From assembly GCA_050250435.1 (NCBI GenBank), contig JBFWOR010000012.1, forward strand, positions 1 to 64,000: a stretch of 64,000 nucleotides of DNA, written 5' to 3'. The stretch comes from Pirellulales bacterium (lineage in GTDB: Bacteria; Planctomycetota; Planctomycetia; Pirellulales; PALSA-1355). Made by a program: the position numbers and the translations under genes. The notes beneath the pieces are model-generated. The model did no database searches. It saw only the letters and a program-made list of their open reading frames with translations, and was not told where the DNA came from. Shown here in pieces: positions 6,415 to 64,000 of this stretch. Positions within the stretch are counted from its first letter, which is position 1. The number at the start of each line of letters is the position of its first letter.

Positions 6415-6595
6415 CCGTAGCGCAGGCGTCGTTCGATCTCAGGTAGCTTATCGAGTCGCGTTGCCGAACGCGGCGTGCGCGGCCGGGTACGGCTGTGGCG
6501 TGCGGGTGCAGTGCCAACTCGCCCAGAGAAACCTGCGAAAGACTCGCTGCCGCAGCTGGTCAACCGGCGACACAGCAACCCCGAGCGGTCGCGGG

Positions 6596-47271: not shown

Positions 47272-50200
47272 ATGCCGCAGAATCCAAAGCGCAAATCGTC
47301 GGGGAGCAGTCCGCGCAAGGCGACGCCGCAGCGGCGTCACCGCCGCGCTCAGTTCGAGGCGCTCGAGGTCCGCGTGGCGCTCCACGCCGGCCACGATCAC
47401 GATCCGCCTGACGACCCGGGTCCCGAGCCGCCGGAGCACGAACCGGACGACCACGCCAGCCACGTGGATTTGAATAACTGGCTCGACCACATGCTGTACG
47501 ACAATGGCGCCGTGGATGCCACGGCCGCCGGCGTGCCCCAGCCCGACCTGCTCGAGGCGCAGTTTCCGGAGGACTCGGACGCGGCCGATACCGGCGAGTG
47601 GAGTCCGCTGCAGAACTGGCCCATCGAGTTCATCAACGCCCTGATGCTGCCCACGGGCAAGGTGATGGGCTACGACCGCACGATGAACTTGCGGTTGTGG
47701 GATCCGCTCACGAACACGTTCACTTCACCGGCCGATCCGGGCTACAACCTGTTTTGCACCGGCACCGCCCTGCTGGCTGACGGCACGGTGCTGGTCACCG
47801 GCGGACACGTGGTGGATACGGTTGGACTGCCGTACGCGTCGATCTACGACCCGTTCCAGGACTCGTGGACGCAGCTGGCGAACATGAACGCCGGCCGCTG
47901 GTATCCCTCGCAAACCACGCTGGCCAATGGCGACGTGCTCGTACTGTCCGGTGACACGAACGGCGACATTACGGATCCCTTGCCACAGATCTACGAGGCG
48001 GCCACGGGCACCTGGCGCGATCTGACCACCGCCGAGCTCACGTTGTCGTTCTATCCGCGGACGTTCTCGGCGCCCAACGGCGCCGCGTTCGTCGCCGGGC
48101 CCGATCCGCTGTCACAGTATCTCGACGTGACGGGCACCGGCCAATGGATTCCGGTCGACTACCGCATCGAGCCCAACCGCAGCTTCGGCTCGGCCGTGAT
48201 GTATGCGCCGGGCAAGGTGTTGTATGTGGGCGGCGGTTCGCCGGCGACGGCCACGGCCGAAGTGATCGACCTCAACGAGCCGAGCCCGCAATGGCGGGCC
48301 GTTTCGAACATGGCCTTTCCGCGCCGCAACGGGCACGCCACGCTGCTGCCGAACGGCGAAGTGCTGGTGGTGGGCGGCAACACCGGCGTGTTGCACTACG
48401 ACGGCGACGCCGTGCTGGCCGCGGAGATTTGGAACCCCGTGACCGAGACCTTCCGCACCGTGGAGAACATGGACGACGTGCGCTGGTACCACTCGGTGGC
48501 GGTGCTGCTGCCCGATGGACGCGTTCTGTCCACCAGCGGCGACTTGCATCTGACCGGTCAGGTCTACTCGCCGCCGTACTTGTTCCAGGGCGATCGGCCC
48601 ACGATCTCCTCCGCCCCGGAAACGTTGCAATACGGCGACAGTTTCTTCGTGGGCACTCCCGACGCCGCCGAGATTACCAAGGTGAGTTGGGTGCGGATGG
48701 GCACCGCCACGCACGCCCAGGACTGGGACCAGTATATACAGGAAGCCGTGTTCACCGAGACGCCGGGCGGACTGATGGTCACGGCGCCCCCCACGGCCAA
48801 CACGGCGCCGCCGGGCTACTACATGCTGTTCATCCTGAACGGCGACGTGCCCTCGGTAGCCAAGACCATTCGCGTCGGCACGATGCTTCCGGAAGTGTCC
48901 GTGTCGCGCTCGTCGACTGCCGAAGGTCCTAACGGCGGCACGACCGAGATGGTGTTTACTGTCAGCTTGGCGCTGTCGAGTGCCGAGACCGTGACGGTGC
49001 CCTACACCACCTTCGACCAGACGGCGCTTGCCGGTCAGGACTATGTGGCACAGGCCGGCACGCTCACGTTTGCACCGCTGGAGAAGGTGAAGACCGTTAC
49101 CGTGCAGGTGCTCGGCGATCTCGAGACGGAAGCGCCCGAGGAGTTTGATCTCAACATCTACGATCCGGTTGGCGCCGTATTGTTCGAGCCGATCGGTCAG
49201 GGCATCATTCGCGATTTTGGCTCCCTGCCGGTGCTCACGATCGACGACGTCGTGGTCGTCGAAGGCGACGCGGGCACGTCGAACGCCGTCTTCACGGTCA
49301 CGCTCTCGGCACCGCCGGCCGGCACGCCCGTCACCGTGCAATACTCCACGGCCGACGGCACCGCGACCGCCGGGCAAAGCTACCTGACGACCGCCGGCAC
49401 GTTGACGTTCAGTCCGGGTGTGACCACGCAGACCATCGCGGTGCCGATCATCGGCGACACGATGGACGAGTTCAACAACTCGTTCCTGCTCAATCTCACG
49501 GCCCCCGTCGGCGCCGACTTGGAAGACGCGCAGGGCCTGGGGCTGATCTACAATAACGACGACCCGGTGACGGCCAACTTCATTGGCACCGAGGTTGACT
49601 TCGAGCCGATCGGCAGTGCCGCGCAATTGACGTTCACCGTGGCGCTCTCCGCAGCCAGCGGCAAACCGGTCGAAGTCTTCTGGACCACCCAGGCCGACGG
49701 CACTGCCAAGCCGGGCGTCAACTTCGTGGAGCAGGTGGGGCATTTCGTGATGGCGCCGGGTACGACCACGGCCACCTTCAACGTTACCGTGCTCGACGAC
49801 GGCGTGCGGACTACGGATCGCACGTTCTCCGTGATCATGCAAAGCGAGCTGACGAACGCCAACTACGGCGACCGCTATACCTTTGCCTTGCTCGTCGATA
49901 CCGATACGCTGCCCGCACTGTCGCTGTCCAAGCCCGAAGTCACGGAAGGGCTGGCGGGCTCGGTGGCAATGGTGTTTACGGTTTCGCTCACGGCGGCGGC
50001 CGATGATCCGGTGGTCGTGAACTATGCGACTTCCGCCGGCACGGCCACGCCCGGTGTGGATTACACCGAAACGTCGGGAGTGATCACTTTTGCGCCGGGC
50101 ATCACCTCGCAGCTCATCACCGTATCGGTCGCGGGCGACGGGGACGATGAATCGAACGAGACGTTCAACCTCACGCTCAGCAATCCGGTGAATGCGACGT

Positions 50201-53133
50201 TGGCCGGCGGGCTGGCGGTGGGCACGATTCTGGACGACGACGGCGCGGCCTCGCCCGCGGTGCCGCAAGATCTGACGGCCGAAGCCGGTTTTGCCCGCGT
50301 GACGCTGCGTTGGGACGCGGTGGCGGGCGCAAGCGGCTACCAGGTGTATCGCGGCACGACGCCGGGCGGCGCCGGCACCACGCCCATCGCGGGCGGCATC
50401 GTCGGCACGGAATACACGGACACCGGTTTGACGAACGGCACGGATTATTACTATTGGGTCACGGCCGTGCAGGGCGCAATCGAAGGATCGGCGTCCGCGG
50501 AAGTTCACATCGTGCCGACGGCCTACGATTTTTCTGAGGGCTTTCCGGGCCGCAGCCTGGATCCCACGGTGCCCAACGCCCTGGGCAGCGCCGAAGTGCT
50601 GAGCCTCAACGGTTACAACATTCACAACGTGCGCCTGTTCGGCACGGCCATGCAACTGACCGATGGCGGCAGCAACCAGCGCGACAGCGTCTTTACGCGG
50701 CAACTGGTCGACGTGCGCCGCTTTACGACGCACTTTTCGTTTCAGCAGATTCCCAGCCTGGGCTACGTGAATCAACTGGCCGACGGCATGACGTTTACCA
50801 TCCAAACCGACGGGCCAACCGCGCTGGGCGGTTCGGGCGGCGGGTTGGGCTTCTCGTCAATTCCCAACAGCCTGGCCATCAAGTTTGATCTGTACGACAA
50901 CACGGGCGAGGGCTTCAACTCCACCGGTCTGTATACGAACGGCGCTTATCCCAGCGCAGACGACTCGATCGACCTGACGGGCGGGGGCATCGACTTTCAC
51001 AGCGGCCATTTGTTCGACGTGAGCATGGAGTACGACGGCACGACGTTGCGCGTGACGATTACCGACACAGTCACTTTGGGCACCGCGACGCAGGAATATG
51101 TCGTCGACATTCCGACAGTGGTCGGCGGCGACCTGGCCCACGTGGGCTTCACCGGCGGCACGGGTGGATTGTCTGCCGTGCAGCGCATCACCAACTGGAT
51201 TTTCACTCCGGCGCCGGCGGTGCCCACCGGGCTGCAGGTGACCTCGATTGCCGCGGCCGAAGTCGCGCTCGCCTGGACCAATGTCGATCCCAACGCCAGC
51301 GGCGTGATCGTCGAGCGGCGCACGGGATTGGCCGGCACGTACGAAGCGATTGGCGGCACCTTGCCGGCCGGAACCGCCACGTTTGCCGACGCGACCGTCG
51401 CCCCGGGCAACACCTACTACTATCGCGTCCGGGCGGTCAACGGCACGAGCCCCTCGGAGGCTTCGAACGAAGTCGAAGCCACGCCGACCGGCGACATCGA
51501 TTTTCCGGATGGCTTCGACGGTTTCGAGAACTACTTCGTCTACAACGGTCCGACCGCCGCGCAAGTGGACGACCACCTGCAAGTTTCCGGCGGCGGCATG
51601 AACGAGGCCACCAGCATCTTCTGGCCGGGCGCCGTCGACGTGACTGCGTTCTCCACGGAGTTCGAAATTCAGCTGCTGCCGGGCACGGTCCCGATGGCCG
51701 ACGGCATGACCTTTACCATTCAGGGCGTGGGTCCGACGGCGCTGGGCGCCACCGGCGGCTCGTTGGGCTATGCCGGCATTCCCACGAGCCTGGCCATCAA
51801 GTTCGATCTGTACGACAACACGGGCGAAGGCTTCAGCTCGACCGGCTTGTACCTCAACGGCGCCTATCCGAGCATGGACGACTCGATTGATTTGACCGCT
51901 GCGGGCCTCGACCTCCACAGCGGCCACGTGTTCGCCGTGAGCATGACGTACGACGGCACCACGCTGGAAGTCACCATCACCGACACGGTCACGCTGGCCA
52001 CGGCCACGCAGTTGTACGAAGTGGACATTCCCGCGGCCGTGGGTGGCGATACGGCGTATGTCGGCTTTACCGCGGGCACCGGCGGATTCCGCGCCGTGCA
52101 AAATGTGCTCAATTGGGTGTACACGCCCGGCTTCACTCCGCCCGCCATCTCCGAGGTGGTCGGCCGCCACATCTTCTACAATCAAAGCGCGTTCGACGGC
52201 AACAATCCGGCCATCAATGCGGCCGACGACGGTGCCATCGCGCCCGACAAGACCGCCTACCTTCCGGGCGACGGACTGGCCGGGTTCCAGCACATTACGA
52301 GCTATGCGCGCGGCATCAACGGCATCATCGTCGACCTGTCGACGGGCGGAAATCACGCGTCGCTCGGCGTGAACGATTTTGCTTTTAAAGTGGGCGCGAA
52401 CAATTCGCCCGACACTTGGGGAGCAGCGCCTGCTCCGTCGGCAATTACGGTGCGCACCGGCGCAGGCCTCAGCGGCTCCGACCGGGTGGAGATTACCTGG
52501 GCCAACGGCGCCATCGTCAACCAATGGCTCGAAGTGCAGGTGCTGGCCACGGCGAACACGGGCCTGGCCGCCCCCGACGTGTTCTTTTGGGGCAATCGGC
52601 TGGGCGACACCGGCGCGCCGACGGCCACCTCCTTCACCACCACCACCGCCGACGCGTCGACCATCATTGCCGGCGGTCTGGGCGGTGCCGGCGGCATCAC
52701 GAACGTGCGCGATATCGACAAGAGCAATACGGTCACGGTGGCCGGCGATCGCGCGGCTGCGCTGGGTAATATCGGTGCTTTGAATCGGCTGAACGTCGGT
52801 ACCGGCGGGCCGTTCGCCCCGCAGGCCAGTGCCCTGGCAAACTCCAGCGAGAGTGCGGGTAGCGGCAGCGCAAACCCCGGCGAGGCCGGCATTGCCTTCG
52901 CACTGGCTGCGCTGGCAGCCGCCCCTGCCGATCCGCAAGTTTCGCTAGGGACCGCTGCGGTGCAAGAGACCAGGAGCGTGGCGATCGATGCGCGCCATCC
53001 CAGCGTTCATGCTCTGCACCAGGCCCTGTGGTGCGGCGCGGCGATGGACGATGCGGACGACAGCGCCGAGGATTGGCGCGTGAGCGACGAGCTGGCGGAG
53101 CTGTTGGCGGGGGCGGTTTCGCTCGACGAGTAA
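47272..53133 (+). CDS. Giant (1953 aa) multidomain surface protein. Domain order: glyoxal/galactose-oxidase-like (Glyoxal_oxid_N + DUF1929), several Calx-beta domains, FN3, then two FN3+L-type-lectin modules and a C-terminal extension with an acidic tail.
   Basis: WPIEFINALMLPTGKVMGYD...LVTGGH (glyoxal oxidase N). VVVEGDAGTSNAVFTVTLS...VQYSTADGTATAGQSYLTTAGTLTF (Calx-beta). AVPQDLTAEAGFARVTLRWDAV (FN3). MTFTIQ...LAIKFDLYDNTGEGF...VGFTGGTGG appears twice (lectin). The N-terminus has RRHRRAQFEALEVRV, then a His/Asp/Pro/Glu-rich stretch. Confidence 0.85.
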   Translation: MPQNPKRKSSGSSPRKATPQRRHRRAQFEALEVRVALHAGHDHDPPDDPGPEPPEHEPDDHASHVDLNNWLDHMLYDNGAVDATAAGVPQPDLLEAQFPEDSDAADTGEWSPLQNWPIEFINALMLPTGKVMGYDRTMNLRLWDPLTNTFTSPADPGYNLFCTGTALLADGTVLVTGGHVVDTVGLPYASIYDPFQDSWTQLANMNAGRWYPSQTTLANGDVLVLSGDTNGDITDPLPQIYEAATGTWRDLTTAELTLSFYPRTFSAPNGAAFVAGPDPLSQYLDVTGTGQWIPVDYRIEPNRSFGSAVMYAPGKVLYVGGGSPATATAEVIDLNEPSPQWRAVSNMAFPRRNGHATLLPNGEVLVVGGNTGVLHYDGDAVLAAEIWNPVTETFRTVENMDDVRWYHSVAVLLPDGRVLSTSGDLHLTGQVYSPPYLFQGDRPTISSAPETLQYGDSFFVGTPDAAEITKVSWVRMGTATHAQDWDQYIQEAVFTETPGGLMVTAPPTANTAPPGYYMLFILNGDVPSVAKTIRVGTMLPEVSVSRSSTAEGPNGGTTEMVFTVSLALSSAETVTVPYTTFDQTALAGQDYVAQAGTLTFAPLEKVKTVTVQVLGDLETEAPEEFDLNIYDPVGAVLFEPIGQGIIRDFGSLPVLTIDDVVVVEGDAGTSNAVFTVTLSAPPAGTPVTVQYSTADGTATAGQSYLTTAGTLTFSPGVTTQTIAVPIIGDTMDEFNNSFLLNLTAPVGADLEDAQGLGLIYNNDDPVTANFIGTEVDFEPIGSAAQLTFTVALSAASGKPVEVFWTTQADGTAKPGVNFVEQVGHFVMAPGTTTATFNVTVLDDGVRTTDRTFSVIMQSELTNANYGDRYTFALLVDTDTLPALSLSKPEVTEGLAGSVAMVFTVSLTAAADDPVVVNYATSAGTATPGVDYTETSGVITFAPGITSQLITVSVAGDGDDESNETFNLTLSNPVNATLAGGLAVGTILDDDGAASPAVPQDLTAEAGFARVTLRWDAVAGASGYQVYRGTTPGGAGTTPIAGGIVGTEYTDTGLTNGTDYYYWVTAVQGAIEGSASAEVHIVPTAYDFSEGFPGRSLDPTVPNALGSAEVLSLNGYNIHNVRLFGTAMQLTDGGSNQRDSVFTRQLVDVRRFTTHFSFQQIPSLGYVNQLADGMTFTIQTDGPTALGGSGGGLGFSSIPNSLAIKFDLYDNTGEGFNSTGLYTNGAYPSADDSIDLTGGGIDFHSGHLFDVSMEYDGTTLRVTITDTVTLGTATQEYVVDIPTVVGGDLAHVGFTGGTGGLSAVQRITNWIFTPAPAVPTGLQVTSIAAAEVALAWTNVDPNASGVIVERRTGLAGTYEAIGGTLPAGTATFADATVAPGNTYYYRVRAVNGTSPSEASNEVEATPTGDIDFPDGFDGFENYFVYNGPTAAQVDDHLQVSGGGMNEATSIFWPGAVDVTAFSTEFEIQLLPGTVPMADGMTFTIQGVGPTALGATGGSLGYAGIPTSLAIKFDLYDNTGEGFSSTGLYLNGAYPSMDDSIDLTAAGLDLHSGHVFAVSMTYDGTTLEVTITDTVTLATATQLYEVDIPAAVGGDTAYVGFTAGTGGFRAVQNVLNWVYTPGFTPPAISEVVGRHIFYNQSAFDGNNPAINAADDGAIAPDKTAYLPGDGLAGFQHITSYARGINGIIVDLSTGGNHASLGVNDFAFKVGANNSPDTWGAAPAPSAITVRTGAGLSGSDRVEITWANGAIVNQWLEVQVLATANTGLAAPDVFFWGNRLGDTGAPTATSFTTTTADASTIIAGGLGGAGGITNVRDIDKSNTVTVAGDRAAALGNIGALNRLNVGTGGPFAPQASALANSSESAGSGSANPGEAGIAFALAALAAAPADPQVSLGTAAVQETRSVAIDARHPSVHALHQALWCGAAMDDADDSAEDWRVSDELAELLAGAVSLDE
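50515..52135 (+). repeat. Intragenic tandem duplication. Two ~650-bp FN3/lectin modules (about 50515-51215 and 51484-52135), 85-90% identical in the best-aligning portions.
   Basis: For example 50791-50950 (atgacgtttaccatccaaaccgacgggccaaccgcgctgggcgg...ctggccatcaagtttgatctgtacgacaacacgggcgagggcttcaac) matches 51701-51860. A third related copy is at 1-150. Confidence 0.6.
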
Positions 53134-54984: not shown

Positions 54985-57687
54985 CTAGGCATCGAGCGGA
55001 ATGGAATTGAGCGGCACGGATGATTCGGTCGCGGCCAGCGGCAGTCGCAGGCGAAACACGGAGCCGCCGCCGGGTCGATTTTCCGCCACCAGCGTGCCGC
55101 CGTGCAACTCGACGATGCCGCGGCAAATAGCCAGCCCAAGCCCCGCGCCGGGTCGCCGGCCCGACTCGCCGACGCGATAGAACTTCTCGAACACGCGCTG
55201 GAGATCTTGCGGCGGCAATCCCGCGCCCCGGTCGGCCACTTCGATCTGCAAGAAGCCCTCTGCCTCGACGGCCCGCAGCTCGATCGTGCTGTCCGGTGGA
55301 GAATACTTGGCGGCATTTTCCAGCAGGTTGACCAGCACCTGCTCCATCAGCAGATCGTCCATCGGCACGAAGGGTAAATCGGGCTGGAGGTGCGTGACGA
55401 CCTGATGCTGCGTCAGCTCGCGGGAGATACGGCCTAGCGCGGCGCCGATCACTTCCTCTACGGCTTGCAGCTCCTTGTGAACTTCGAGCGCGCCGGCCTC
55501 CAGCCGCGTCATGTCCAGGAGATTGGCCACCAGGCGGTTGAGATGGATCGCCTCGCTATGGATTGATTCCAGCAATTCGCGTCGCACGTCGGGAGTGAGC
55601 GGTTCACCATTCTCCAGCAGCGTGCTGGCCCCGCCGATGATCACCGACAACGGCGTGCGCAAATCGTGCGAGACGGCGCTTAAAAGCGAGCTGCGCAACC
55701 GTTCGGTCTCCATTTGCACGCGCACCCGAGCGCCCTCGGCCGCGAGCTCCACGCGTTCTGTGGCCAGTGCGATGAGGCCGGCAAACGCTTCCAGCAAGTG
55801 GATTCGCTCTGGCCCGGCATTGCGCCAGCTGGCGTGTGGCAATACCCCCAGTACGCCCACGGTCCCCAGCGAAGCCTTGAGCGGCAAGTACAAGCCTGCG
55901 GATCCCGGCAGCGTGGCGGAGCCGTGGCCCGCCGCCTCGCCGTGATCGAACGCCCAGCGCGCCACCGCCAGCTCATGCGGTCCCGTGGCAAATCCACCGG
56001 CGTCGGCCGAGGCCGCAACCATCTGCTGCTGCGCGTCGGGAAAGAGCAACACGGCTTCGGCATCCACCGCCTCGGTCACGTGCCGCAGGGCGATTTTGGC
56101 AATCGCGTCGCGGGTGCGCGCGCCGGCCAGTTGTTGGCTGATGGCATACAGCGATGCCGTGCGGCGTTCGCGCTGCCGGGCCGATTCAACCTGAAATTGC
56201 ACCCGCGCCGTCAGCGTGCTGATCAGCAGTGCCGTCGCCAGCATGACCCCAAAGGTGATGACGTACTGCGTGTCCTGCACGGCGAAGGTGAACGTGGGCG
56301 GGATGAAAAAGAAGTCGAACGCCGCCACTGCCAACACGCTGGCCAGCGCCGACGGCCCGCTGCCGTACCGCAACGCGATCGACAGCACGCCCAGCAGGTA
56401 CAGCATCACCAGGTTGGTTTCGTCGAGAAAACGAGACAGCGGCCAACCGATCAACGTGCACAAAATGACGACGCCGATTGCCACCGCGTAGCCGCCACGG
56501 TACTCGGCGGCGGCGGGCGTGCGCACCACGGCGTCGGGCCGGGGGGTAGCCTCGCCGGAGATGACGTAGACATCGATCTCGCCGCATTTGCGCGTGACTT
56601 CATACACGAGCGAACCGCGCAGCCACTCTTTCCAGCGCGGCTGATGGGGTTTGCCCACGATGATCTTGCTGACGTTGCGGCTGCGCGCGTAGTGGATCAA
56701 CTCGTCGGCCAGGTTCTGTCCGGACAGCGTGGCCACCTCGCCACCCAGCTCTTCCGCCAGATGGAGCGTTTGCGCCAGTCGATCCCGATCGGCAAGCGAC
56801 ATGCGCGCGTCGGCGGGCGTTTCCACGTGCACGGCGATCCAGGGGGCCTTGAGGCTGGTCGCCATCCGCCGCGCGGCCCGCACCAACCGGGCGGAGAAAG
56901 GGCTGGGGCCGACGCAAACCAAGAGCCGCTCCGTCACCGGCATGGTCGTCGCCATGCCGTGCGACTGGCGGAAGTCCTCCATCTGCGCGCCGACGCGTTC
57001 GGCGGCTTTGCGCAGCGCCAGCTCGCGCAGCGCGATCAAGTTGCCCTTGGCGAAGAAATTCTTGATCGCGCGCTCCGCCTGGAATGGCAAGTAGACCTTG
57101 CCTTCGCGCAACCGCTCGATCAAGTCTTCCGAGGGCAAATCGACGAGTTCCACGTCGTCGGCCTCGTCGAAGATCGAATCCGGCACCGTTTCGGCCACGG
57201 CTACCCCGGTGATCCGCGCCACGACGTCGTTGAGGCTGTCGAGATGCTGCACGTTCAGCGTGGTGTATACGCTGATGCCGGCTTCGAGCAGCCGCACGAC
57301 GTCCTGCCAACGCTTGGCGTAGGTCATGCCCGGCGCATTGGTGTGTGCCAGCTCGTCAACCAGGATCAATTGCGGGCGCCGCGCCAGCGCCGCCTCCAAG
57401 TCGAACTCCAGCAGCCGCGTGCCTCGGTAGGGCACCTCTTTGCGCGCCAGCACGTCGAGGCCCAGCACCAAAGCCTGGGTCTCAGGTCGGGCGTGCGGCT
57501 CGATGTAGCCCACCAGCACGTCGAGCCCTTCGCGCGCCTGTTCGCGGGCCGCCTCGAGCATTGTGTAGGTCTTGCCCACACCGGGCGCCGCGCCGAAGAA
57601 GATCTTCAATTTGCCGCGCGCCTGGCGTGCCTCATCGGCTTGCACGCGGGCCAGCAGTCGATCGGGATCCGGCCGCTCGTCGTTCAT
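54985..57687 (-). CDS. kdpD: KdpD-like sensor histidine kinase (KdpD N-terminal sensor + USP + 4 TM + GAF + HisKA + HATPase).
   Basis: KIFFGAAPGVGKTY P-loop of the KdpD sensor domain. H-box SHDLRTPLS. G-box ADRGAGLP...GAGLGLAIC. Start at MNDERPDP (57687). Confidence 0.85.
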   Translation of the reverse strand: MNDERPDPDRLLARVQADEARQARGKLKIFFGAAPGVGKTYTMLEAAREQAREGLDVLVGYIEPHARPETQALVLGLDVLARKEVPYRGTRLLEFDLEAALARRPQLILVDELAHTNAPGMTYAKRWQDVVRLLEAGISVYTTLNVQHLDSLNDVVARITGVAVAETVPDSIFDEADDVELVDLPSEDLIERLREGKVYLPFQAERAIKNFFAKGNLIALRELALRKAAERVGAQMEDFRQSHGMATTMPVTERLLVCVGPSPFSARLVRAARRMATSLKAPWIAVHVETPADARMSLADRDRLAQTLHLAEELGGEVATLSGQNLADELIHYARSRNVSKIIVGKPHQPRWKEWLRGSLVYEVTRKCGEIDVYVISGEATPRPDAVVRTPAAAEYRGGYAVAIGVVILCTLIGWPLSRFLDETNLVMLYLLGVLSIALRYGSGPSALASVLAVAAFDFFFIPPTFTFAVQDTQYVITFGVMLATALLISTLTARVQFQVESARQRERRTASLYAISQQLAGARTRDAIAKIALRHVTEAVDAEAVLLFPDAQQQMVAASADAGGFATGPHELAVARWAFDHGEAAGHGSATLPGSAGLYLPLKASLGTVGVLGVLPHASWRNAGPERIHLLEAFAGLIALATERVELAAEGARVRVQMETERLRSSLLSAVSHDLRTPLSVIIGGASTLLENGEPLTPDVRRELLESIHSEAIHLNRLVANLLDMTRLEAGALEVHKELQAVEEVIGAALGRISRELTQHQVVTHLQPDLPFVPMDDLLMEQVLVNLLENAAKYSPPDSTIELRAVEAEGFLQIEVADRGAGLPPQDLQRVFEKFYRVGESGRRPGAGLGLAICRGIVELHGGTLVAENRPGGGSVFRLRLPLAATESSVPLNSIPLDA

Positions 57688-57985
57688 GGGCGATTCGGTT
57701 CTCCAGAAAGCCGGCAGTGGTACTGTCCGCCAGTGCCGAGCGAGGCGCAACAGGAATTCCGCGGCTGTGGCAATTCTACGATACAACCCTCACGCCCGCC
57801 CACGGGCTGAAGCGGTGCGGGGACTGCAGGGGGCGAAAAATGTTCGCCGGCATGCGCGCGAGCAGGCAGCAAAGGGCCACGATCACTATAGGCCCCAGCG
57901 CGTCAAAATTGCGCTAAAATCGGCACGGGCGCGGGTAAACTGCACGGCTTCGCGGGGCAAGCGTGAAAACACGAGAAAGCACGCG

Positions 57986-59458
57986 TCAGGCGCGGGTGTC
58001 GCCCGGGCCGGCAGCCAGCGCCGCCAGTTGATGCGCCATTGGCTCCAGCACGCTCTGCCAATCGCCGATGCGCGCCTGGCGAAACAATCGCATCGTCGGA
58101 TACCAGGGACTGTCGTCGCGGTCGGCCAGCCAGCGCCATTCTGCCGAGAACACGAGTGCCACCCAAACCGGCACACTGAGCGCGCCGGCCACATGCGCCG
58201 TCACCGTATCGTTGGTCACTACCAGGTCGAGGGTTTTCATCAGTGCAGCCGTGTCCATCAGCGCGCCGTGCTCGCCGTCGAGCTGATCGCCAAAGTCGAG
58301 GACTTCAAATCGATCTGCCACGGCGGCAATCTGCTCTACACCTTCCTGCTTCTGCAAGCTGACGAGGATCGTGCCGGGCACGCGCGCCAGCGCTGCAAAC
58401 TCTGCCAAGGGAATCACTCGGCCGTCGCGGATGGCAACCTGGCTGCCGTGCCAATGGATGCCAATTTTGACGCCGTCGTGCGCGGCCAACCGCTGGCGCC
58501 ACAAGGATTCGAGCGCGTCATCGGCGGACAGATAGGGAACGTCGGCCGGAATGCAGTCGAGCCGGGTGCCGAGGATTCGCGGCAGGCTCATCAAGGCTGC
58601 CTGGACATGACAATCACCAGGCGGCCTGTCGACAGAGGCCGCCGTTTGGAATCCGCTCGTGTGCAATAGCGGCAACAGTTGCGGCTGCACGGCCAGCGCC
58701 ACCTCGCCGCCGCGCGCTTGCACTAGCGGGAGATAGCGAACGAATTGCAGTGTGTCGCCCAGTCCTTGCCCCCATTCGCTGTAGATCAAGACGCGCCGGC
58801 CGTCTAACGGCCTGCCGTCCCACTGGGGCAACGCAAAATTGCGGGCCACCCGCTTCAGCCGCCAATCGTACTGCGGCCAACCGCCATCGAAATCGCCCGC
58901 CGCCAACAGCGCCGCGCCCAGGCGAAAGCGGGGCTCGTCGCGCTCGGGATCGAGCGCGATGGCGCTGCGAAAACAGTCGGCCGCCTCGGCCAGTTTCCGT
59001 TGTGCCTGCAAGCATTGCCCCATTTGCACGAGCACGTCGACGTGCGGTGCGCGGAGTCGCAGATAGTGGCGGTACTCGGTTTCCGCCTCCGCCAAGTGCC
59101 ATTGTTTGTGCAGCACGGTCGCCAGATTCAAGCGCGCGTCGGCGCTGTCCGGCTCGAACTGCAAGAAACGCCGATACTCAGCGGCGGCCTCGTCGAGCTG
59201 CTCGAGCAACTGCAGCGACACGGCCAGCGCTCCCATCGCGGCGCTGGCGTTTGGGCGGATGCTGAGCACTTCACGATGGCACGCCACCGCCTCGCTGTAG
59301 CGCCGTTGCGCTTGCAGCACGAGGCCCAGCAAGTGCCAGGCATCGGCGTGGCGACCGTCGCCGCTGAGAATCTGGCGACAGTTTTCGGCGGCCGCGAGCA
59401 AGTCGCCCGACTGCTGGCAGCGCAGCGCGTCCTGAAACAATTCGTGGTTGCTCGGCAT
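57986..59458 (-). CDS. TPR-repeat protein fused to a family 9 glycosyltransferase (heptosyltransferase-like) domain.
   Basis: N-terminal TPRs (AWHLLGLVLQAQRRYSEAVACHREVL...). The C-terminus has GT9 features (VLIYSEWGQGLGDTLQFVRYLPLV...DLVVTNDTVTAHVAGALSVPVWV). Start at MPSNHELF (59458). Confidence 0.7.
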   Translation of the reverse strand: MPSNHELFQDALRCQQSGDLLAAAENCRQILSGDGRHADAWHLLGLVLQAQRRYSEAVACHREVLSIRPNASAAMGALAVSLQLLEQLDEAAAEYRRFLQFEPDSADARLNLATVLHKQWHLAEAETEYRHYLRLRAPHVDVLVQMGQCLQAQRKLAEAADCFRSAIALDPERDEPRFRLGAALLAAGDFDGGWPQYDWRLKRVARNFALPQWDGRPLDGRRVLIYSEWGQGLGDTLQFVRYLPLVQARGGEVALAVQPQLLPLLHTSGFQTAASVDRPPGDCHVQAALMSLPRILGTRLDCIPADVPYLSADDALESLWRQRLAAHDGVKIGIHWHGSQVAIRDGRVIPLAEFAALARVPGTILVSLQKQEGVEQIAAVADRFEVLDFGDQLDGEHGALMDTAALMKTLDLVVTNDTVTAHVAGALSVPVWVALVFSAEWRWLADRDDSPWYPTMRLFRQARIGDWQSVLEPMAHQLAALAAGPGDTRA

Positions 59459-59585
59459 ACGCGCCCCGACAAAGAACGGCGCGGTGCACAACCCGTTGCC
59501 GCCGGGTGCGGCTCCGCCACGCCGTCAGGTGGTGGCATCATAAATGGGGCAGGGGGGGCCGATCAAGTTTGCAAGCTGGGGCCGC

Positions 59586-60296
59586 TCAGGCAGCCGCTCG
59601 TGTGGGCGCGGGCGCTGAAACGTCAACTGCGGCGCTGGCAGTTTGACCGTACCGGTTGCAGTAACGGTCGTGCCACTTGGCGGCCTCTGCTGCGGGAATG
59701 GTAACCGGCTGTGCCATTTGCATGGCCAGCAACACGGTGCGAGCGACATCTTCGACCATTACGGCCGCCTTGAGCGCGGCTTCTGCCGACGGTCCCCAAG
59801 TGAACACTCCGTGTTGGCCCAACAGAATGGCCGGCGCCCGATTGCGATGAGCGAGAATGGCGCGGCCGATTGCGTCGCCCTCGTTGCTGACATACGGGGT
59901 GCAAGGAATGGCGTCACCGAACTCGTCGGCGATGGCGGTCAGGCACAGCGGAATGGGCTTCAAGCAGGCCGCGAAGGCCGTGGCATGGTTGCTGTGCGTG
60001 TGCACGATGCTGCGCACGTCGCGCAGGTGCCGATAGAGAAACAAATGGTGCGGCAGGTCGACGCTGGGTCGCCTTTCGCCTCGTACCACTCGGCCGCTCT
60101 CCAAGTCAACTTCCACGATGTCGTCGGGCGAGATGCATTCGTAGTCCATGCCCGAGGGCTTGATGTATACCCGGCCGTGCTCGGGGTCCAGCACGCTGCC
60201 GTTGCCAGAATGCATCACGACCAACTGGTGCTTGGGCAGGGCCTGGTTCAAGCGACAGGTGGCAAGGCGCAGTTCGTCGTGAGGCGCGGCGGGCAT
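59586..60296 (-). CDS. Class II aldolase/adducin-family protein (L-ribulose-5-phosphate 4-epimerase/fuculose-phosphate aldolase-like).
   Basis: GNGSV...IKPSGMDYE, HTHS and HGVFTWG metal-binding and active-site motifs. Confidence 0.8.
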   Translation of the reverse strand: MPAAPHDELRLATCRLNQALPKHQLVVMHSGNGSVLDPEHGRVYIKPSGMDYECISPDDIVEVDLESGRVVRGERRPSVDLPHHLFLYRHLRDVRSIVHTHSNHATAFAACLKPIPLCLTAIADEFGDAIPCTPYVSNEGDAIGRAILAHRNRAPAILLGQHGVFTWGPSAEAALKAAVMVEDVARTVLLAMQMAQPVTIPAAEAAKWHDRYCNRYGQTASAAVDVSAPAPTRAAA

Positions 60297-60368
60297 GGCG
60301 GGACTCCTCAGAGGCCTGGAGGCAACTGGCCGGCAATTTGGGGAGCGGTATATAAACGCCCCGTCGCG

Positions 60369-60573
60369 CCGACGTCAAGGCGAGCGCCGTGCTAGCACGC
60401 GCGAGCGCGGCAGGTTGCGCTTGCGCAGCGGGCGGACCGGCGCGGGCCAATTCGCATGGCACGTTTTGTTGAAAACTGTTACCTTCCTGCTCCGCCCGCC
60501 GCTGGAAATTCCGCACGGACGCCGCCCCGCTCCCGCCCGAATCGACTCGCGCTCAGCAGTGAAAGGATTCACG
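60369..60573 (+). promoter_or_regulatory. Conserved 5' leader/regulatory region of membrane paralog 1. Blocks: gccgacgtcaagg; AAGGCGAGCGCCGTGCTAGCA (palindrome CGTGCTAGCACG); GGGCCAATTCGCATGG; CTGTTACCTTCCTGCTCCGC; CCGCACGG; GCAGTGAAAGGATTCACG-ATG.
   Basis: The blocks recur in the same order and spacing upstream of paralog 2 (62388-62650), while the intervening sequence has diverged. A TATATAA lies at 60349-60355 just upstream. Confidence 0.5.
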
Positions 60574-62382
60574 ATGAGTATCGCGGATCATCCGTCCCAT
60601 CCCGCGCTGCGCCGCCGCTGGTTGGCTTGGTCTGCGGGCGAAGCTTCGCTCGGCGTGGCGACGCGCGTCTGCCGCCGTGCCTGGCAGGCGCTGCGGTCCG
60701 ATCGGCCATTGGTCATGGGGATTGTGTGGGGCCTGGCGGCCTGGATCGTTCTGGAATTGCTATTCGTCGGCTGGGTTCACCGCAATGCCGAGGGCGTTTC
60801 GTACCGCGCCTTTCTTCCCGGCGTGATGTTGGGCCAGACCGAGGCCGAACGCGCGTCGGGCTGGCAGCCCGTGTGCAAGGTGGGCTTCGACGGCCAGCAG
60901 TACTATCGCATTTCGAACGACCTGTTGGCGCGAAAGAACCCCGCCAACGCCATGACGAACGTGATCTATCGCTATCAGCGCATTGGCATGCCGCTGATCG
61001 CCGGCTCTGTGGCTGGATTGCTGGGATACAGCGTGACGCCGCCCTTGTTGTATCACTCGCTGCAAATCGGCTTGACGTGCGTGGGGTTTGGCGCGCTGGT
61101 GTATTGGCTCGTGGCGCACCGCCTGAGTCCGGCGTACGCGCTGGGCTGGCTGCTGGCGGGCGGCACCATCAACGCGCTGTGGGTGGGCGTGGCCGATGCG
61201 CCGGGCGACGCGTTTTTTATCTTAGCCATGCTGGCGATTTTGTCGCGCCGGCTGTGGGCCTACGTGCCCCTGGCCACGTTGATGGTTCTGACGCGGGAAG
61301 GCTATGTCGCCTTCGCCTTCCCAATCTTCTTGCTCACCGCTTTGGGGCGATGCGGCTGGCAGTCGGGCACCGGCGAATGGAAGATGCTGCCCACGTTCAC
61401 GTGGCGCGACGTGACCGGCTACTGGAAGCCGGTGCTGTTGACGGCGCTGCCGGGGATCATCGTCGTCGGCTGGACGTTGTTCCTGGAGGTGCAGCTGCAG
61501 ACCTCGGCGCGCGAAGCGCGCAGCGATCCGAACATGCAAGGCTGGCCCTTCGTGGCCCTGGTGGAATATCTGAAACTCACGTTTCGCGACGGCAACTGGG
61601 TGCAACTTCGGCTGTTGCTGGCGAGCGCATTCACCGTGGTGGGCGTACTGCTGTTGCTGGTGCGCAACGTACGGCGGGCACCGCTGGCGCTGTTGTGCGC
61701 GGCTCCCTACCTGCTGTTGATCGCTTCGCTGGGCAACTACACCTGGGAACACTACATCTGCTTTTTGCGCGTGATCGGCGGCCCCATTGCGATTGGCGTG
61801 CTGCTATTGCCCTACGACAAGTCGCTCGTGCTGCGCTTCATGCTGGCCCTGCAGGCGATGGTCGGGCTGGACTTGCAAATCGAGCAGCGGCTTTTTCACT
61901 CGCGTCAGTTCTCGCCGTACCTGATCCATGAAGACGAAGGCTTTGCACCCAATCCCGCCGGCGCTCCGGACAACCCGCTGCTTACCGATTTGCGCAGCAG
62001 CGTCGAATGGACCGATGCCAAGCCGGTGTTGCGCATGGACTATCACGGCGTCTGGTCGCGCGTGCATCGCGAAGTTCGGCCGGTGACCATCGCCGTCACG
62101 AATCACTCGGATGTCACCTGGCAGCCAGGCAAAGGTCAGCATGCGATTTACCTGGGCTGCAGAATCTACGACGAGTCCGGTCAGCGCCAACTCGCCGAGC
62201 ACTCCGCCATTCTCACCCAGCCCATCGCGCCCGGGGAGACAAAAAACCTCTCGGCCTACCTCGAGCTGTGGCGGCCGGGTCGCAACTACGTCGTTGAATT
62301 CTCGCTGTGGCAGGAGGGGAAAGGCTGGTTTGTGCAGACGGATGCCACGTTTGGGCGGCGCTACGAGTATCGCGTCGAATGA
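60574..62382 (+). CDS. Polytopic integral membrane protein (~450-aa TM domain plus a ~150-aa C-terminal soluble domain), paralog 1. Function unknown.
   Basis: Start at MSIADHPSHP (60574) preceded by AAAGGA. About 10-12 hydrophobic helices. A conserved loop motif VGFDGQQYY...YRYQRIGMP. The track's N-terminal extension from 60295 would read through the conserved leader and is rejected. Confidence 0.7.
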   Translation: MSIADHPSHPALRRRWLAWSAGEASLGVATRVCRRAWQALRSDRPLVMGIVWGLAAWIVLELLFVGWVHRNAEGVSYRAFLPGVMLGQTEAERASGWQPVCKVGFDGQQYYRISNDLLARKNPANAMTNVIYRYQRIGMPLIAGSVAGLLGYSVTPPLLYHSLQIGLTCVGFGALVYWLVAHRLSPAYALGWLLAGGTINALWVGVADAPGDAFFILAMLAILSRRLWAYVPLATLMVLTREGYVAFAFPIFLLTALGRCGWQSGTGEWKMLPTFTWRDVTGYWKPVLLTALPGIIVVGWTLFLEVQLQTSAREARSDPNMQGWPFVALVEYLKLTFRDGNWVQLRLLLASAFTVVGVLLLLVRNVRRAPLALLCAAPYLLLIASLGNYTWEHYICFLRVIGGPIAIGVLLLPYDKSLVLRFMLALQAMVGLDLQIEQRLFHSRQFSPYLIHEDEGFAPNPAGAPDNPLLTDLRSSVEWTDAKPVLRMDYHGVWSRVHREVRPVTIAVTNHSDVTWQPGKGQHAIYLGCRIYDESGQRQLAEHSAILTQPIAPGETKNLSAYLELWRPGRNYVVEFSLWQEGKGWFVQTDATFGRRYEYRVE

Positions 62383-62387
62383 GGAAG

Positions 62388-62650
62388 CCGACGTCACAAG
62401 GCCTGGGGCAAGCGGCCGGCACGAAACCGGACCATGGCCGGCGCCGCGTCGCCGGAAGGGAAGGCGAGCACCGTGCTAGCAAACCGTGCCGCGTACGTCG
62501 GCAGCGGCCGCTCCCTTCGCAGGGGCCCAATTCGCATGGAGTGATTGTTCCAAAGCTGTTACCTTCCTGCTCCGCATCAGAGCCCCCGCACGGCTGCTGC
62601 CTCGATCCCCGCCGATTCGTCCCGCGCGCTTCGCAGTGAAAGGATTCACG
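62388..62650 (+). promoter_or_regulatory. Second copy of the block-conserved leader, upstream of membrane paralog 2. A ~60-nt insertion carrying a GGCCGG...CCATGGCCGG hairpin lies between the first two blocks.
   Basis: Blocks at 62388-62404, 62460-62480, 62522-62538, 62554-62574, 62585-62592 and 62625-62650. Confidence 0.5.
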
Positions 62651-64000
62651 ATGAGTATCGCGGATCATCCGTCGCGTCCCGCGCTGGGGCATCGCGCGCC
62701 CGGCTGGTTCGCCGGCGGAGCGCCGCACACCACACCGGCCAGTAGGCTCGTCGCGGCCTGGCACGCGCTGCGGGCGAACCGCCCCTTGTTTCTAGGCATC
62801 TTGTGGGGGCTGACGGCCTGGGTCGCGCTTGAAACTGCGTTTCTCGCTTGGGCTCACCGCAATCTGGAAGGCGTCACCCAGCGGGCATTTCTGCCCGGAC
62901 AGGTGTTCGGTGTTCCCGAGCGTGAGGCGGCCGCCAACTATCATCCCGTCAGCAGAGTCGGCTACGACGGGCAGTTCTACTACTGGATGTCCAACGACAT
63001 CTTCGCGCGCTACGACGCGCAGCGGCACATGGACGCGCCGCTATATCGTTATCAGCGCATCGGCATTCCCATGCTGGCCGGCGGGCTGGCAACCGCGATG
63101 GGTCTCGAACTCACCCCCGCAAGGCTCTATCACACGCTGCAATTCGGCCTGACGTCGGCCGGCTTCGGAGCGCTGGTTTATTGGCTCAAACGGAACGGTC
63201 TCAATCCGGCTTACGCCCTGGGTTGGCTCATCTCGGGCGGAACGTTGCAGTCGTTGTGGCTGGGGATCCTCGACGCGCCATCCGATGCGATGTTCGTCTT
63301 CACGCTGCTGGCAGTGCTGGGAAGGCGTTTACTGTGGTACGTGCCGATCGCCACGCTCATGCTGCTGACGCGCGAGGGCTACGTTGTCTACGCCTTGGCG
63401 ATGTTCCTGGCGACGGCGGCGGCGCCCCTCGTGGCCAGGGCGACCGGCGGACGCGCGCAGCGCTTCGGCTGTTTCGCCTGGCGAGACGTCGGCAACTACT
63501 GGCACGCAGTCGTGCTGGCGGCGGTGCCCGGCGTCGTAATGCTCTCGTGGACAGCGTACCTGGCAATTCATTTTCAATTGTCGCCGACGGCGGTTCGCGG
63601 CGGTTCCGATGCGACCCATTGGCCGTATTACATGATGGCGCATTACGCGGAAGTCTTTTTTCGCCGCGGCAATTGGTTTGAATTGCGGTTGCTACTGGTC
63701 AGCGGGTTCTCGCTATTGTTGATTTCGGCGCTGCTGGTCCGCGATTTTCGGCACCTGCCGGTGGCCTTGATCTGCACCGTGCCATACGTGCTCCTGACCG
63801 CGGCGCTGGGAAACATGGTGTGGGAGGCCTGGATCGGCCACATGAAAGCCAGCGGCGCGATCCTCGTCATCGGACTGTTCCTGATGCCCTTTGACAAATC
63901 CGTGTTGCTGCGATTCGTGCTGATGCTCCAAGCGGTCGTCGGAGTGGACTTGCAAACCCAGCTGCGGGTAATGGACGGGCAGTTGCTCTGCCCGCACCTC
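62651..64000 (+). CDS. Polytopic integral membrane protein, paralog 2 (3' end beyond the window). It is absent from the ORF track because no stop occurs before the window end.
   Basis: A manual frame-2 translation from the ATG at 62651 gives MSIADHPSRPALGHRAPGW...VGYDGQFYYWMSNDIFAR...YRYQRIGIPMLAGG... with no stop to nt 64000. It is collinear with paralog 1 throughout. Confidence 0.7.
   Translation, partial: MSIADHPSRPALGHRAPGWFAGGAPHTTPASRLVAAWHALRANRPLFLGILWGLTAWVALETAFLAWAHRNLEGVTQRAFLPGQVFGVPEREAAANYHPVSRVGYDGQFYYWMSNDIFARYDAQRHMDAPLYRYQRIGIPMLAGGLATAMGLELTPARLYHTLQFGLTSAGFGALVYWLKRNGLNPAYALGWLISGGTLQSLWLGILDAPSDAMFVFTLLAVLGRRLLWYVPIATLMLLTREGYVVYALAMFLATAAAPLVARATGGRAQRFGCFAWRDVGNYWHAVVLAAVPGVVMLSWTAYLAIHFQLSPTAVRGGSDATHWPYYMMAHYAEVFFRRGNWFELRLLLVSGFSLLLISALLVRDFRHLPVALICTVPYVLLTAALGNMVWEAWIGHMKASGAILVIGLFLMPFDKSVLLRFVLMLQAVVGVDLQTQLRVMDGQLLCPHL

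Follow-up and report, generated by a model that had tools for sequence, protein, structure and literature searches.

The last 4 kb of a 64-kb stretch of DNA from a Pirellulales bacterium (contig JBFWOR010000012.1, positions 1 to 64,000, hereafter the window) carry two genes for large membrane proteins in tandem on the plus strand, each preceded by a control region in which the same short sequence blocks recur. Both proteins are predicted glycosyltransferases of the GT-C fold. Gene 2 runs past the end of the window; public databases list its complete product, P0014 (601 aa), for the same metagenome-assembled genome (MAG) of Pirellulales. The intergenic region in front of gene 1 is shared with a divergent gene resembling class II aldolases and L-ribulose-5-phosphate 4-epimerases. 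In the following, the region before gene 1 is called leader 1 and that before gene 2 leader 2 (coordinates of all features are collected in Table 1). We consider it rather likely that the locus arose by tandem duplication of a complete expression cassette, that is, the intergenic control region together with the GT-C gene, and that the blocks are ordinary expression signals kept in both copies. The finding is real but fairly ordinary, and the evidence points away from a riboswitch-like or attenuator leader.

The products of genes 1 and 2 are 49% identical over 449 aa in a gap-free BLASTP alignment, and both start with the peptide MSIADHPS. At the nucleotide level the shared start is longer: a 41-nt stretch, GCAGTGAAAGGATTCACGATGAGTATCGCGGATCATCCGTC, which spans the Shine-Dalgarno (SD) sequence, the ATG and eight codons, is identical at all 41 positions in the two copies. 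The original prediction, which was made by reading the sequence, had described two tandem multi-transmembrane (TM) proteins of about 600 aa and 45-55% identity with a common start peptide and SD, preceded by five blocks in the same order and at nearly the same spacing, and all of this holds. From 5' to 3' the blocks are AAGGCGAGC[G/A]CCGTGCTAGCA (block 1), CCAATTCGCATGG (block 2), CTGTTACCTTCCTGCTCCG (block 3), CCGCACGG, and the 41-nt stretch (block 5), and their offsets from leader 1 to leader 2 are 2084, 2080, 2080, 2075 and 2077 nt, respectively. Within the 64 kb, each block longer than 13 nt is confined to these two copies, and shuffled sequences give an expectation of 0 matches. The same prediction had stated that only the blocks stayed intact while the sequence between them diverged. 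The divergence is evident, but the homology is not confined to five islands, as it spans the entire intergenic region, with position 60297 aligning with 62383. It begins at the first base past the stop codon of gene 1, which is equivalent to the first base past the start codon of the divergent gene, so that what is repeated is the gene together with its entire intergenic region. This unit of approximately 2.08 kb covers 60297-62382 and starts again from 62383. Between the units the leaders are 66% identical overall and the coding sequences 62%, in line with the earlier view that this is not a uniformly recent duplication.

Homologous loci, labeled L001, L002 and so on, were taken from genomes and metagenomes. 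A word-indexed search yielded 20 homologous proteins, all from Pirellulales or Planctomycetes. Most genomes have a single copy of the gene, and the tandem pair is found only in the window, L001 and L002. The blocks recur 5' of the single or first homolog in 8-10 other Pirellulales loci: the elements are present in L001, L002, L003, L004 (=L017), L005, L020 and L021 and have a variant form in L016, L023 and L007. This recurrence means that the blocks are conserved across proteins merely 46-62% identical. Furthermore, the window leaders are identical to each other at 66 of the 78 columns that are conserved in the orthologs vs. 57 of the 84 that are unconserved (Fisher p = 0.016). Judged from these alignments, the block-wise conservation reflects functional constraint, as originally proposed, and both copies are under selection. 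The block CCGCACGG is common to the two window leaders only and is not conserved in other genomes. The composite T[CT]GCATGG-N17-TGnTA, which joins blocks 2 and 3, occurs twice in the window and once per locus in seven other loci, always 5' of the GT-C gene; L004 and L017 are the same contig, so these seven loci are six distinct ones. Extra motif copies were sought in the window and in the 20-kb flanks of all loci, and the outcome was one module per locus only. In the distant homologs L006, L009/L018 and L019 the module is absent, and the gene is preceded by a plus-strand gene at a spacing of roughly 75-140 nt.

Blocks 2 and 3 are probably the promoter of the GT-C gene, a sigma-70-type promoter of the extended -10 class with a conserved box in its -35 region. 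Spacing and invariance of this module were established by script in 11 leaders and by eye in the twelfth, L007. The box TCGCATGG is invariant in nine leaders, with the variants TGGCGTGG in L016 and L023 and TCGTATGG in L007. In all 12 leaders ..G..TGG is followed, after exactly 17 nt, by TGnTAnnnT, and this spacing never changes, while the distances around the module are variable (76-153 nt from the module to the ATG, 38-159 nt from TCGCATGG to the palindrome of block 1). In the string bearing the TG and TA, TGTTACCTT, the invariant positions are exactly -15T, -14G, -12T, -11A and -7T, the variable ones being -13, -10, -9 and -8, and in each of the 12 leaders a TGn stands directly 5' of a TAnnnT hexamer, the defining feature of the class. 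The resemblance to known extended -10 sigma-70 promoters comprises the TG at -15/-14 with TAnnnT, the invariance at five contact positions, the fixed distance of the box, a short spacer dyad and an adjacent regulator site. Transcription start sites are predicted near 60491-60494 and 62571-62574, approximately 80 nt before the respective ATG. Thus TCGCATGG, the fixed 17-nt spacer with its dyad, and TGnTAYYTT would together drive the GT-C gene.

The spacer dyad consists of 3-5 Watson-Crick pairs centered at position 9.5-10.5 in nine of the 12 leaders, and its mean longest run is 3.75 vs. 2.87 +/- 0.23 in shuffles. It is kept while its sequence shifts, reading TTCG-N-CGAA in most leaders, and may be an operator inside the promoter. 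A MerR-type reading of the dyad was rejected, as the sole -35-like hexamer (TTCGCA) would give a 23-bp spacer.

Several observations speak against the promoter assignment, which is drawn from consensus and spacing alone. The hexamer 17-18 nt 5' of the -10 (TGGCAC / ATGGCA) makes a poor -35, fitting the TTGACA-like consensus at 2-4 of six positions, and a generic promoter scanner reported no site at the module. The inner -10 positions are unusually pyrimidine-rich and so are complementary to the SD in all eight aligned leaders, and a regulator gene was not identified near the locus. A literature search for promoter maps of Planctomycetes returned nothing usable. Extended -10 promoters can dispense with a -35, and the weak hexamer here is typical in that respect because the TGn compensates. 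Unlike in other extended -10 promoters, however, TCGCATGG shows much stronger conservation than -35 elements normally do, and it is not TTGACA-like. Taken together, the poor hexamer and the strong conservation suggest a site bound by a factor, or a -35 of an unusual kind, more than a standard -35, and the box is probably read by an activator, a repressor or a sigma variant. The box has also been considered as part of a sigma-54 promoter, with TGGCAC as the -24 element, the palindrome TGCTAGCA of block 1 as an enhancer (upstream activating sequence) and block 3 at the 5' end of the transcript. Indeed, TGGCAC(G) fits the -24 consensus in gene 1, L001, L002, L004, L020, L021 and L007, and a palindrome at a variable 38-159 nt upstream resembles an enhancer arrangement. 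The GG is invariant, but the obligatory GG-N10-GC is not found, since GC stands at N10 in none of the 12 leaders and at N9 in only four, the gene 1 leader having neither; leader 2 reads TGGAGT, and the invariant TGnTAnnnT would be left unexplained. A sigma-54 promoter is on these grounds highly improbable, and we retain the extended -10 promoter.

Block 1 lies on the other side of the intergenic region, next to a second promoter. The product of the divergent gene matches the Pfam family Aldolase_II with an E-value of 6.9e-45 and NCBIfam NF005123 with 243.6 bits, slightly below the cut-off of 251, and the same divergent neighbor is found in L001, L002, L021, L023 and the contig of P0005. Its predicted sigma-70-like promoter, GTCAA-N18-TATA(T/C)A when read on the plus strand, is in register in all nine aligned orthologous leaders, seven of which are confirmed by a regular expression. 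On the minus strand the order of elements is TGCTAGCA, about 9 nt, cCTTGAC, 18 nt and TATATA. The palindrome TGCTAGCA is present in every orthologous leader carrying the module and twice in the window, where 0.43 occurrences are expected, and its distance to either promoter varies. We regard it as a candidate operator for a dimeric regulator, an operator-like site that would be shared between the GT-C promoter and the divergent promoter TTGAC-N18-TATATA on the minus strand. Leader 2 is a natural deletion experiment, which separates the signals of the GT-C gene from those of the divergent epimerase-like gene. Both hexamers of the divergent promoter have decayed there (GGGAAGG in place of the first, TATATA gone), because there is nothing upstream to transcribe, the leader having no minus-strand gene beyond it. 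Nevertheless, AAGGCGAGCaCCGTGCTAGCA is kept at 20 of 21 positions despite the decay of the adjacent promoter. As the palindrome block is retained where the divergent promoter was lost, it probably serves the plus-strand gene.

The age of the two copies differs along their length. In a neighbor-joining tree, gene 1 falls into clade A together with the first gene of each pair in L001 and L002, and gene 2 falls into clade B with the second genes of these pairs and most single-copy genes. Since both clades are present in related genomes, the duplication of the gene bodies is older than these species. The second gene of L001 and L002 starts 52-85 nt past the first, has no module and has a different N-terminus. 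The 5' segment of the window copies, in turn, appears to be younger than the gene bodies. The core parts of the window leaders are 79% identical to each other and 54-60% identical to orthologous leaders, and they share six derived bases at otherwise invariant columns, such as CACG in place of CGCT ahead of the ATG. Identity at four-fold degenerate sites is 69% in codons 1-45; in codons 46-449 it falls to 46%, against 39% predicted from composition alone. In addition, the N-terminal tail of P0014 is nearest to P0001, the product of gene 1, and the remaining protein is nearest to clade B. These counts are small (11/16 four-fold sites; 21/43 vs. at most 17/43 tail residues), which counts against our reading of the pair, and we therefore infer the 5' homogenization rather than take it as given. 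The simplest history would then have had three steps: an old tandem duplication copied the whole intergenic-plus-gene unit, related lineages lost leader 2, and the segment from the promoter to codon 45 was later homogenized in the window lineage, most likely by gene conversion, and has since drifted outside the constrained blocks.

Such a history raises the question of whether the identical blocks could be a neutral by-product of patchy recent gene conversion, with leader 2 a relic without function and gene 2 read through from the promoter of gene 1. The younger 5' segment would suit this explanation, as would the second genes of L001 and L002 that follow closely without a leader of their own, and no terminator-like site is predicted between the stop codon of gene 1 and leader 2. 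Against it, the identical blocks of leader 2 coincide with blocks conserved in independent genomes, and the decay of leader 2 is selective, as it hits the hexamers of the divergent promoter and spares the plus-strand elements. By a hand estimate, a 41-nt identical run has a probability of about 1e-7 (0.68^41) at the unconstrained identity of 57/84, or 68%. We hold a relic leader to be very unlikely and prefer two cassettes whose signals are both maintained.

A further observation on the family comes from the closely related contigs L003 and L005, the flanks of which are 83-94% identical at the nucleotide level, while the TM part of the GT-C gene is 59-70% and the 3' end 83-89% identical. The gene of L003 (5222-7027, divergent part 5349-6540) has a clade-A-type module, and that of L005 (10001-11806) a clade-B-type one. 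This looks like a tandem A/B pair collapsed to a chimeric single gene, with cassette-like variation of the catalytic module.

Block 5 is read as the translation-initiation region: a short predicted hairpin displays a strong SD in its loop, and the block also holds the start codon and the conserved MSxxDxP codons. The sequence (C/T)(A/G)GTGAAAGGATTCGCTATGAGT is found in eight other leaders, with the core GTGAAAGGATTCGCTATGAGT invariant and the two preceding bases variable. It is predicted to fold as a small bipartite hairpin with a GUGAA/UUCAC stem; AGGA occupies the apical loop, and the AUG lies in the 3' arm. In six orthologs the energy is -11 to -14 kcal/mol (z -2 to -3.4), and in the two window copies it is -12.9 and -11.0 kcal/mol. 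At the protein level the start MS(I/V/T)x(D/E)xP is conserved throughout the family, and the next approximately 35 residues are not. The serine codon after the ATG is the rare AGT in all leaders with the SD block despite the high GC content, and this constraint may act at the nucleotide level, as AGT pairs with the upstream ACUCA.

Conceivably, block 5 also controls translation, as a hairpin that exposes AGGA in its loop, holds the AUG in its stem and either is bound by a CsrA-type protein or melts with temperature; this could coexist with the promoter model. CsrA targets classically present a GGA in a hairpin loop that overlaps the SD. The AGGA in the apical loop and a stem of 5-6 bp overlapping the SD are shared with CsrA/RsmA targets, and CsrA/FliW systems have been reported for Planctomycetes (PMC4682653). 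A control hairpin would also account for at least 23 nt around the SD being frozen across genomes, for the folding energies of the six orthologous leaders, for the invariant rare AGT with its partner ACUCA in GC-rich genomes and for the AUG of L020, which is held paired via a different register. However, 0 compensatory pairs were found across the 12 leaders, in which 76% of cells pair; with no compensatory change the hairpin rides on sequence invariance and is still a hypothesis. The hairpin of leader 2 is no better than shuffles (z -0.35), that of L016 is absent (z +0.68), and L007 has the promoter module without the SD block. CsrA/RsmA targets usually have a second GGA nearby, whereas no second conserved GGA site is found in the untranslated region (UTR) here, so that with one site and no covariation the similarity is a resemblance only. 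Dedicated translational control by this hairpin is rather unlikely, and we read block 5 primarily as an initiation region.

In the original prediction the leader was offered either as a riboregulator or attenuator, or as a promoter-operator. The promoter-operator part is favored by the data, and the RNA part found no support. The RNA model posits a transcribed leader of about 200 nt, in which block 3 (ACCUUCCUGCUCC) acts as an anti-SD pairing with GCAGUGAAAGG. A pyrimidine stretch complementary to GAAAGG is indeed present in all eight aligned leaders, where 93.6% of cells pair, the window duplex CCUUCCUGC:GCAGUGAAAGG has an energy of -10.2 kcal/mol, which is a point against the promoter reading, and the distance between block 3 and the SD varies, as a long-range helix would allow. 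On the other hand, there is no covariation, nor can there be any in this helix, since the SD side is invariant. The extended CUGC:GCAG complementarity is found only in the window and L002, with -5 to -9 kcal/mol in the other orthologs. Neither the RNAalifold consensus nor the minimum free energy or centroid structure of either leader contains the anti-SD:SD helix, the conserved folding of which had been suggested as a check. Compared with dinucleotide shuffles, both leaders are less stable (z +1.07 and +1.45). RNAalifold on eight leaders returned the small SD hairpin only, with a covariation term of about 0 and 0 compensatory pairs, and by the prediction's own standard this lack of covariation speaks against an RNA element. 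Rfam gave no match in the whole window at the gathering score, and a permissive search of 60200-62800 gave only two chance microRNA matches (E 1.3 and 5.9). The invariant positions of the block fit an extended -10 exactly. With TACCTT as the -10 hexamer, the transcript would start downstream of block 3, which would rule out an anti-SD role for it; the proposed anti-SD ACCTTCCTGCTCC overlaps TGnTAnnnT 17 nt from TCGCATGG and so is probably untranscribed.

As to attenuation, neither a conserved upstream open reading frame (ORF) nor a predicted terminator-like hairpin with a T-tract was found in the two leaders. In leader 1 a long out-of-frame ORF begins at the ATG within block 2, but in leader 2 a stop follows this ATG two codons later, and the attenuator or upstream-ORF reading was rejected for want of a conserved ORF at this ATG and of a terminator-like site in the leaders. 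Thus, an RNA regulator of the kind first proposed is unlikely, a new class of RNA regulator is not revealed here, and the DNA-level promoter and operator signals are the better account of the blocks. The predicted UTR ranges from 70 to 145 nt in length and is variable in sequence. Nine leaders have UTRs of approximately 80 nt with C/G ratios of 1.4-2.2; in L016 (UTR of about 145 nt) the ratio is 1.2. The predicted UTRs of the window (60495-60555 and 62575-62632) are very rich in C and poor in G on the coding strand, and CGCCCGCC is found some 10-20 nt past the -10 in leader 1 and several orthologs and is deleted in leader 2.

The gene 1 product has approximately 11-13 TM helices and a C-terminal beta-sandwich at residues ~470-602. 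The polytopic membrane domain has the conserved helical core of GT-C enzymes, and an acidic residue is present in the first extracytoplasmic loop after TM1, which is the usual site of the GT-C catalytic acid. D106 and D116 are invariant in the 20 homologs and lie between the helices at 44-71 and 138-149, in a loop with short juxtamembrane helices. This loop contains the motif G(F/Y)DGQxYY, in which G104, D106, G107, Q108, Y110 and Y111 are invariant in the same 20 proteins. The motif, first noted as G(F/Y)DGQ(Q/F)YY, is real, and the predicted GT-C fold agrees with the cautious suggestion made then of a GT-C-like glycosyltransferase. We take the proteins to be periplasm-facing GT-C glycosyltransferases with a carbohydrate-binding-like beta-sandwich at the C-terminus, their enzymatic activity being predicted from these features.

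Sequence databases say little about this family. Neither protein matches any Pfam-A family at E ≤ 1, and the family profile finds no PDB chain at E ≤ 10. Residues 102-263 match positions 58-218 of the 232-position NCBIfam profile NF046093 (AZOBR_p60025 family cell surface glycopolymer formation protein) with an E-value of 4.4e-33. The GxDGQxYY loop and the next helices are held in common with this family, but the match scores 114.4 bits against a curated cut-off of 150 and takes in no more than the N-terminal third, so that the proteins are related to NF046093 without being members. The literature search found no papers naming the AZOBR_p60025 family. In a profile search against 1.84 billion representatives, 1243 clusters were obtained at E ≤ 1e-3 and 181 at E ≤ 1e-30, mostly full length. 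The family is thus broader than the word-indexed search suggested, real and uncharacterized. Distant relatives with 26-35% identity are found outside Pirellulales in L010, L012, L013, L011 (Fimbriiglobus), L014 (Pseudomonas aphyarum) and L015 (Bdellovibrionaceae). L010, L012 and L013 are three copies in one MAG labeled Alcaligenaceae, and L011 has two divergently placed copies.

Table 1. Features of the tandem GT-C locus in the window and of the conserved cluster in orthologous loci.
Feature	Position	Strand	Remarks
Divergent gene	59586-60296	-	Class II aldolase / L-ribulose-5-phosphate 4-epimerase-like, 236 aa; shares intergenic region with gene 1
Predicted promoter of divergent gene, sigma-70-like	60349-60378	-	TTGACG (60378-60373), 18-nt spacer, TATATA (60354-60349); consensus match
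Block 1, leader 1	60377-60397	.	AAGGCGAGCGCCGTGCTAGCA; palindrome TGCTAGCA at 60390-60397; CGTGCTAGCACG at 60388-60399
Block 2, leader 1	60447-60459	+	CCAATTCGCATGG; conserved box in -35 region; TCGCATGG at 60452-60459
Promoter spacer, leader 1	60460-60476	.	17 nt; short dyad GTTTT-GTTG-AAAAC
Block 3, leader 1	60477-60494	+	Putative extended -10, then CCTGCTCCG; full 19-nt block is 60476-60494, its first base being the last spacer base
Putative extended -10, leader 1	60477-60485	+	TGT 60477-60479 and TACCTT 60480-60485; consensus match
Predicted 5' UTR body, gene 1	60495-60555	+	C-rich, poorly conserved; holds CCGCACGG at 60511-60518
Block 5, leader 1	60556-60596	+	Putative translation-initiation region; SD AAGGA 60563-60567, ATG 60574-60576, MSIADHPS codons
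Gene 1	60574-62382	+	Predicted GT-C fold glycosyltransferase, clade A, 602 aa
Leader 2	62383-62650	+	Paralogous copy of the whole intergenic region
Block 1', leader 2	62461-62481		Palindrome at 62474-62481
Block 2', leader 2	62527-62539		
Promoter spacer, leader 2	62540-62556		Dyad TTG-TTC-CAA
Block 3', leader 2	62556-62574		
Putative extended -10, leader 2	62557-62565	+	TGT and TACCTT, inside block 3'
CCGCACGG, leader 2	62586-62593		
Block 5', leader 2	62633-62673	+	Same sequence as block 5 of leader 1; putative translation-initiation region for gene 2
Gene 2	62651 to beyond window end at 64000	+	Predicted paralogous GT-C glycosyltransferase, clade B
Cluster 3' of the GT-C gene(s)	L001 13700-19800; L002 13549-19630; L021 3050-9026; L023 5196-11137		Conserved

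A conserved cluster follows the GT-C gene or genes in four of the orthologous loci (Table 1). It begins with a fusion of GtrA to a ribulose-phosphate-3-epimerase-like domain, a 501-aa His_Phos_1 protein and an NTP_transf_3 nucleotidyltransferase, and continues with a second GtrA, a family-less protein of approximately 213 aa, a DUF1045/2',5'-RNA-ligase-like gene on the minus strand and an ArnC/PpgS-like GT2. The window ends inside gene 2, so that the GtrA/GT2 context is taken from the orthologous loci, which must be set against our reading of the pathway. The GT-C enzymes most likely use a polyprenyl-phosphate-linked donor, made by the products of the neighboring GT2 and GtrA genes, from which they would move a sugar to a cell-surface glycan. 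The cluster and the divergent epimerase-like gene suggest that a lipid-linked pentose or pentulose donor is made by a route not yet described.

The closest parallels are three-component systems of extracytoplasmic glycosylation, namely GtrA/GtrB/GtrC of Shigella and Salmonella and the pentofuranose systems, the GT-C enzyme of which founded the CAZy family GT136 (Kelly et al., 2024, PMC11127046). The pentofuranose GT-C enzyme with its carbohydrate-binding module (CBM) is also the closest described enzyme architecture (PMC11127046). With three-component systems the locus shares a GT-C enzyme that has a helical insert on the periplasmic side after TM1 and, at the C-terminus, a beta-rich CBM-like domain, and the orthologous loci carry an ArnC/PpgS-like GT2, GtrA proteins and auxiliary sugar-phosphate epimerases. 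Among the differences, the proteins here resemble no Pfam or PDB-chain family in sequence. The pentofuranose systems differ further in that the flippase candidate here is GtrA-type and not MATE, and the 4-epimerase-like gene, the GtrA-3-epimerase fusion, His_Phos_1 and the nucleoside triphosphate transferase stand in place of a synthase dependent on phosphoribosyl pyrophosphate. Tandem paralogous GT-C genes with C-terminal carbohydrate-binding domains are also known as the mycobacterial arabinosyltransferases EmbC/EmbA/EmbB. To our knowledge, the proteins described here are half the size of Emb, without detectable similarity to it and from a different phylum.

Other genes in the vicinity lie beyond the divergent gene. 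Adjoining it on the minus strand, 57986-59491 encodes a 501-aa protein with N-terminal TPR and a weak C-terminal match to glycosyltransferase family 9 (heptosyltransferase-like), and a similar TPR/GT9-like gene is found near the locus in L002. A full-length KdpD-type sensor histidine kinase (KdpD, Usp, DUF4118, GAF, HisKA, HATPase) is encoded at 54985-57786 on the minus strand and probably has no connection with the locus. On the plus strand, 47272-53133 is taken up by a very long ORF (1953 aa).

It is tempting to consider the whole as a lineage-specific control module for a variable surface-glycan locus, in which a regulator would act on TGCTAGCA and/or on TCGCATGG with the dyad, a CsrA-like protein would read the SD hairpin, and the leader would serve as a recombination anchor for clade A and B GT-C modules that are duplicated, homogenized at the 5' end and collapsed to chimeras. 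The anchor idea is raised because the flanks of L003 and L005 are so much more similar than their TM modules. We regard this wider scheme as improbable; if true, it would amount to a cassette-style system of glycan diversification in Planctomycetes. With the duplicated expression cassette that we favor, the locus offers a concrete architecture of promoter and translation initiation for Pirellulales (Planctomycetota), a lineage with very few defined promoters. A family without a Pfam model is given a predicted fold, GT-C with a CBM-like domain, and a likely pathway context. Finally, the locus points to an uncharacterized three-component-like surface glycosylation pathway with unusual pentose-phosphate enzymes.

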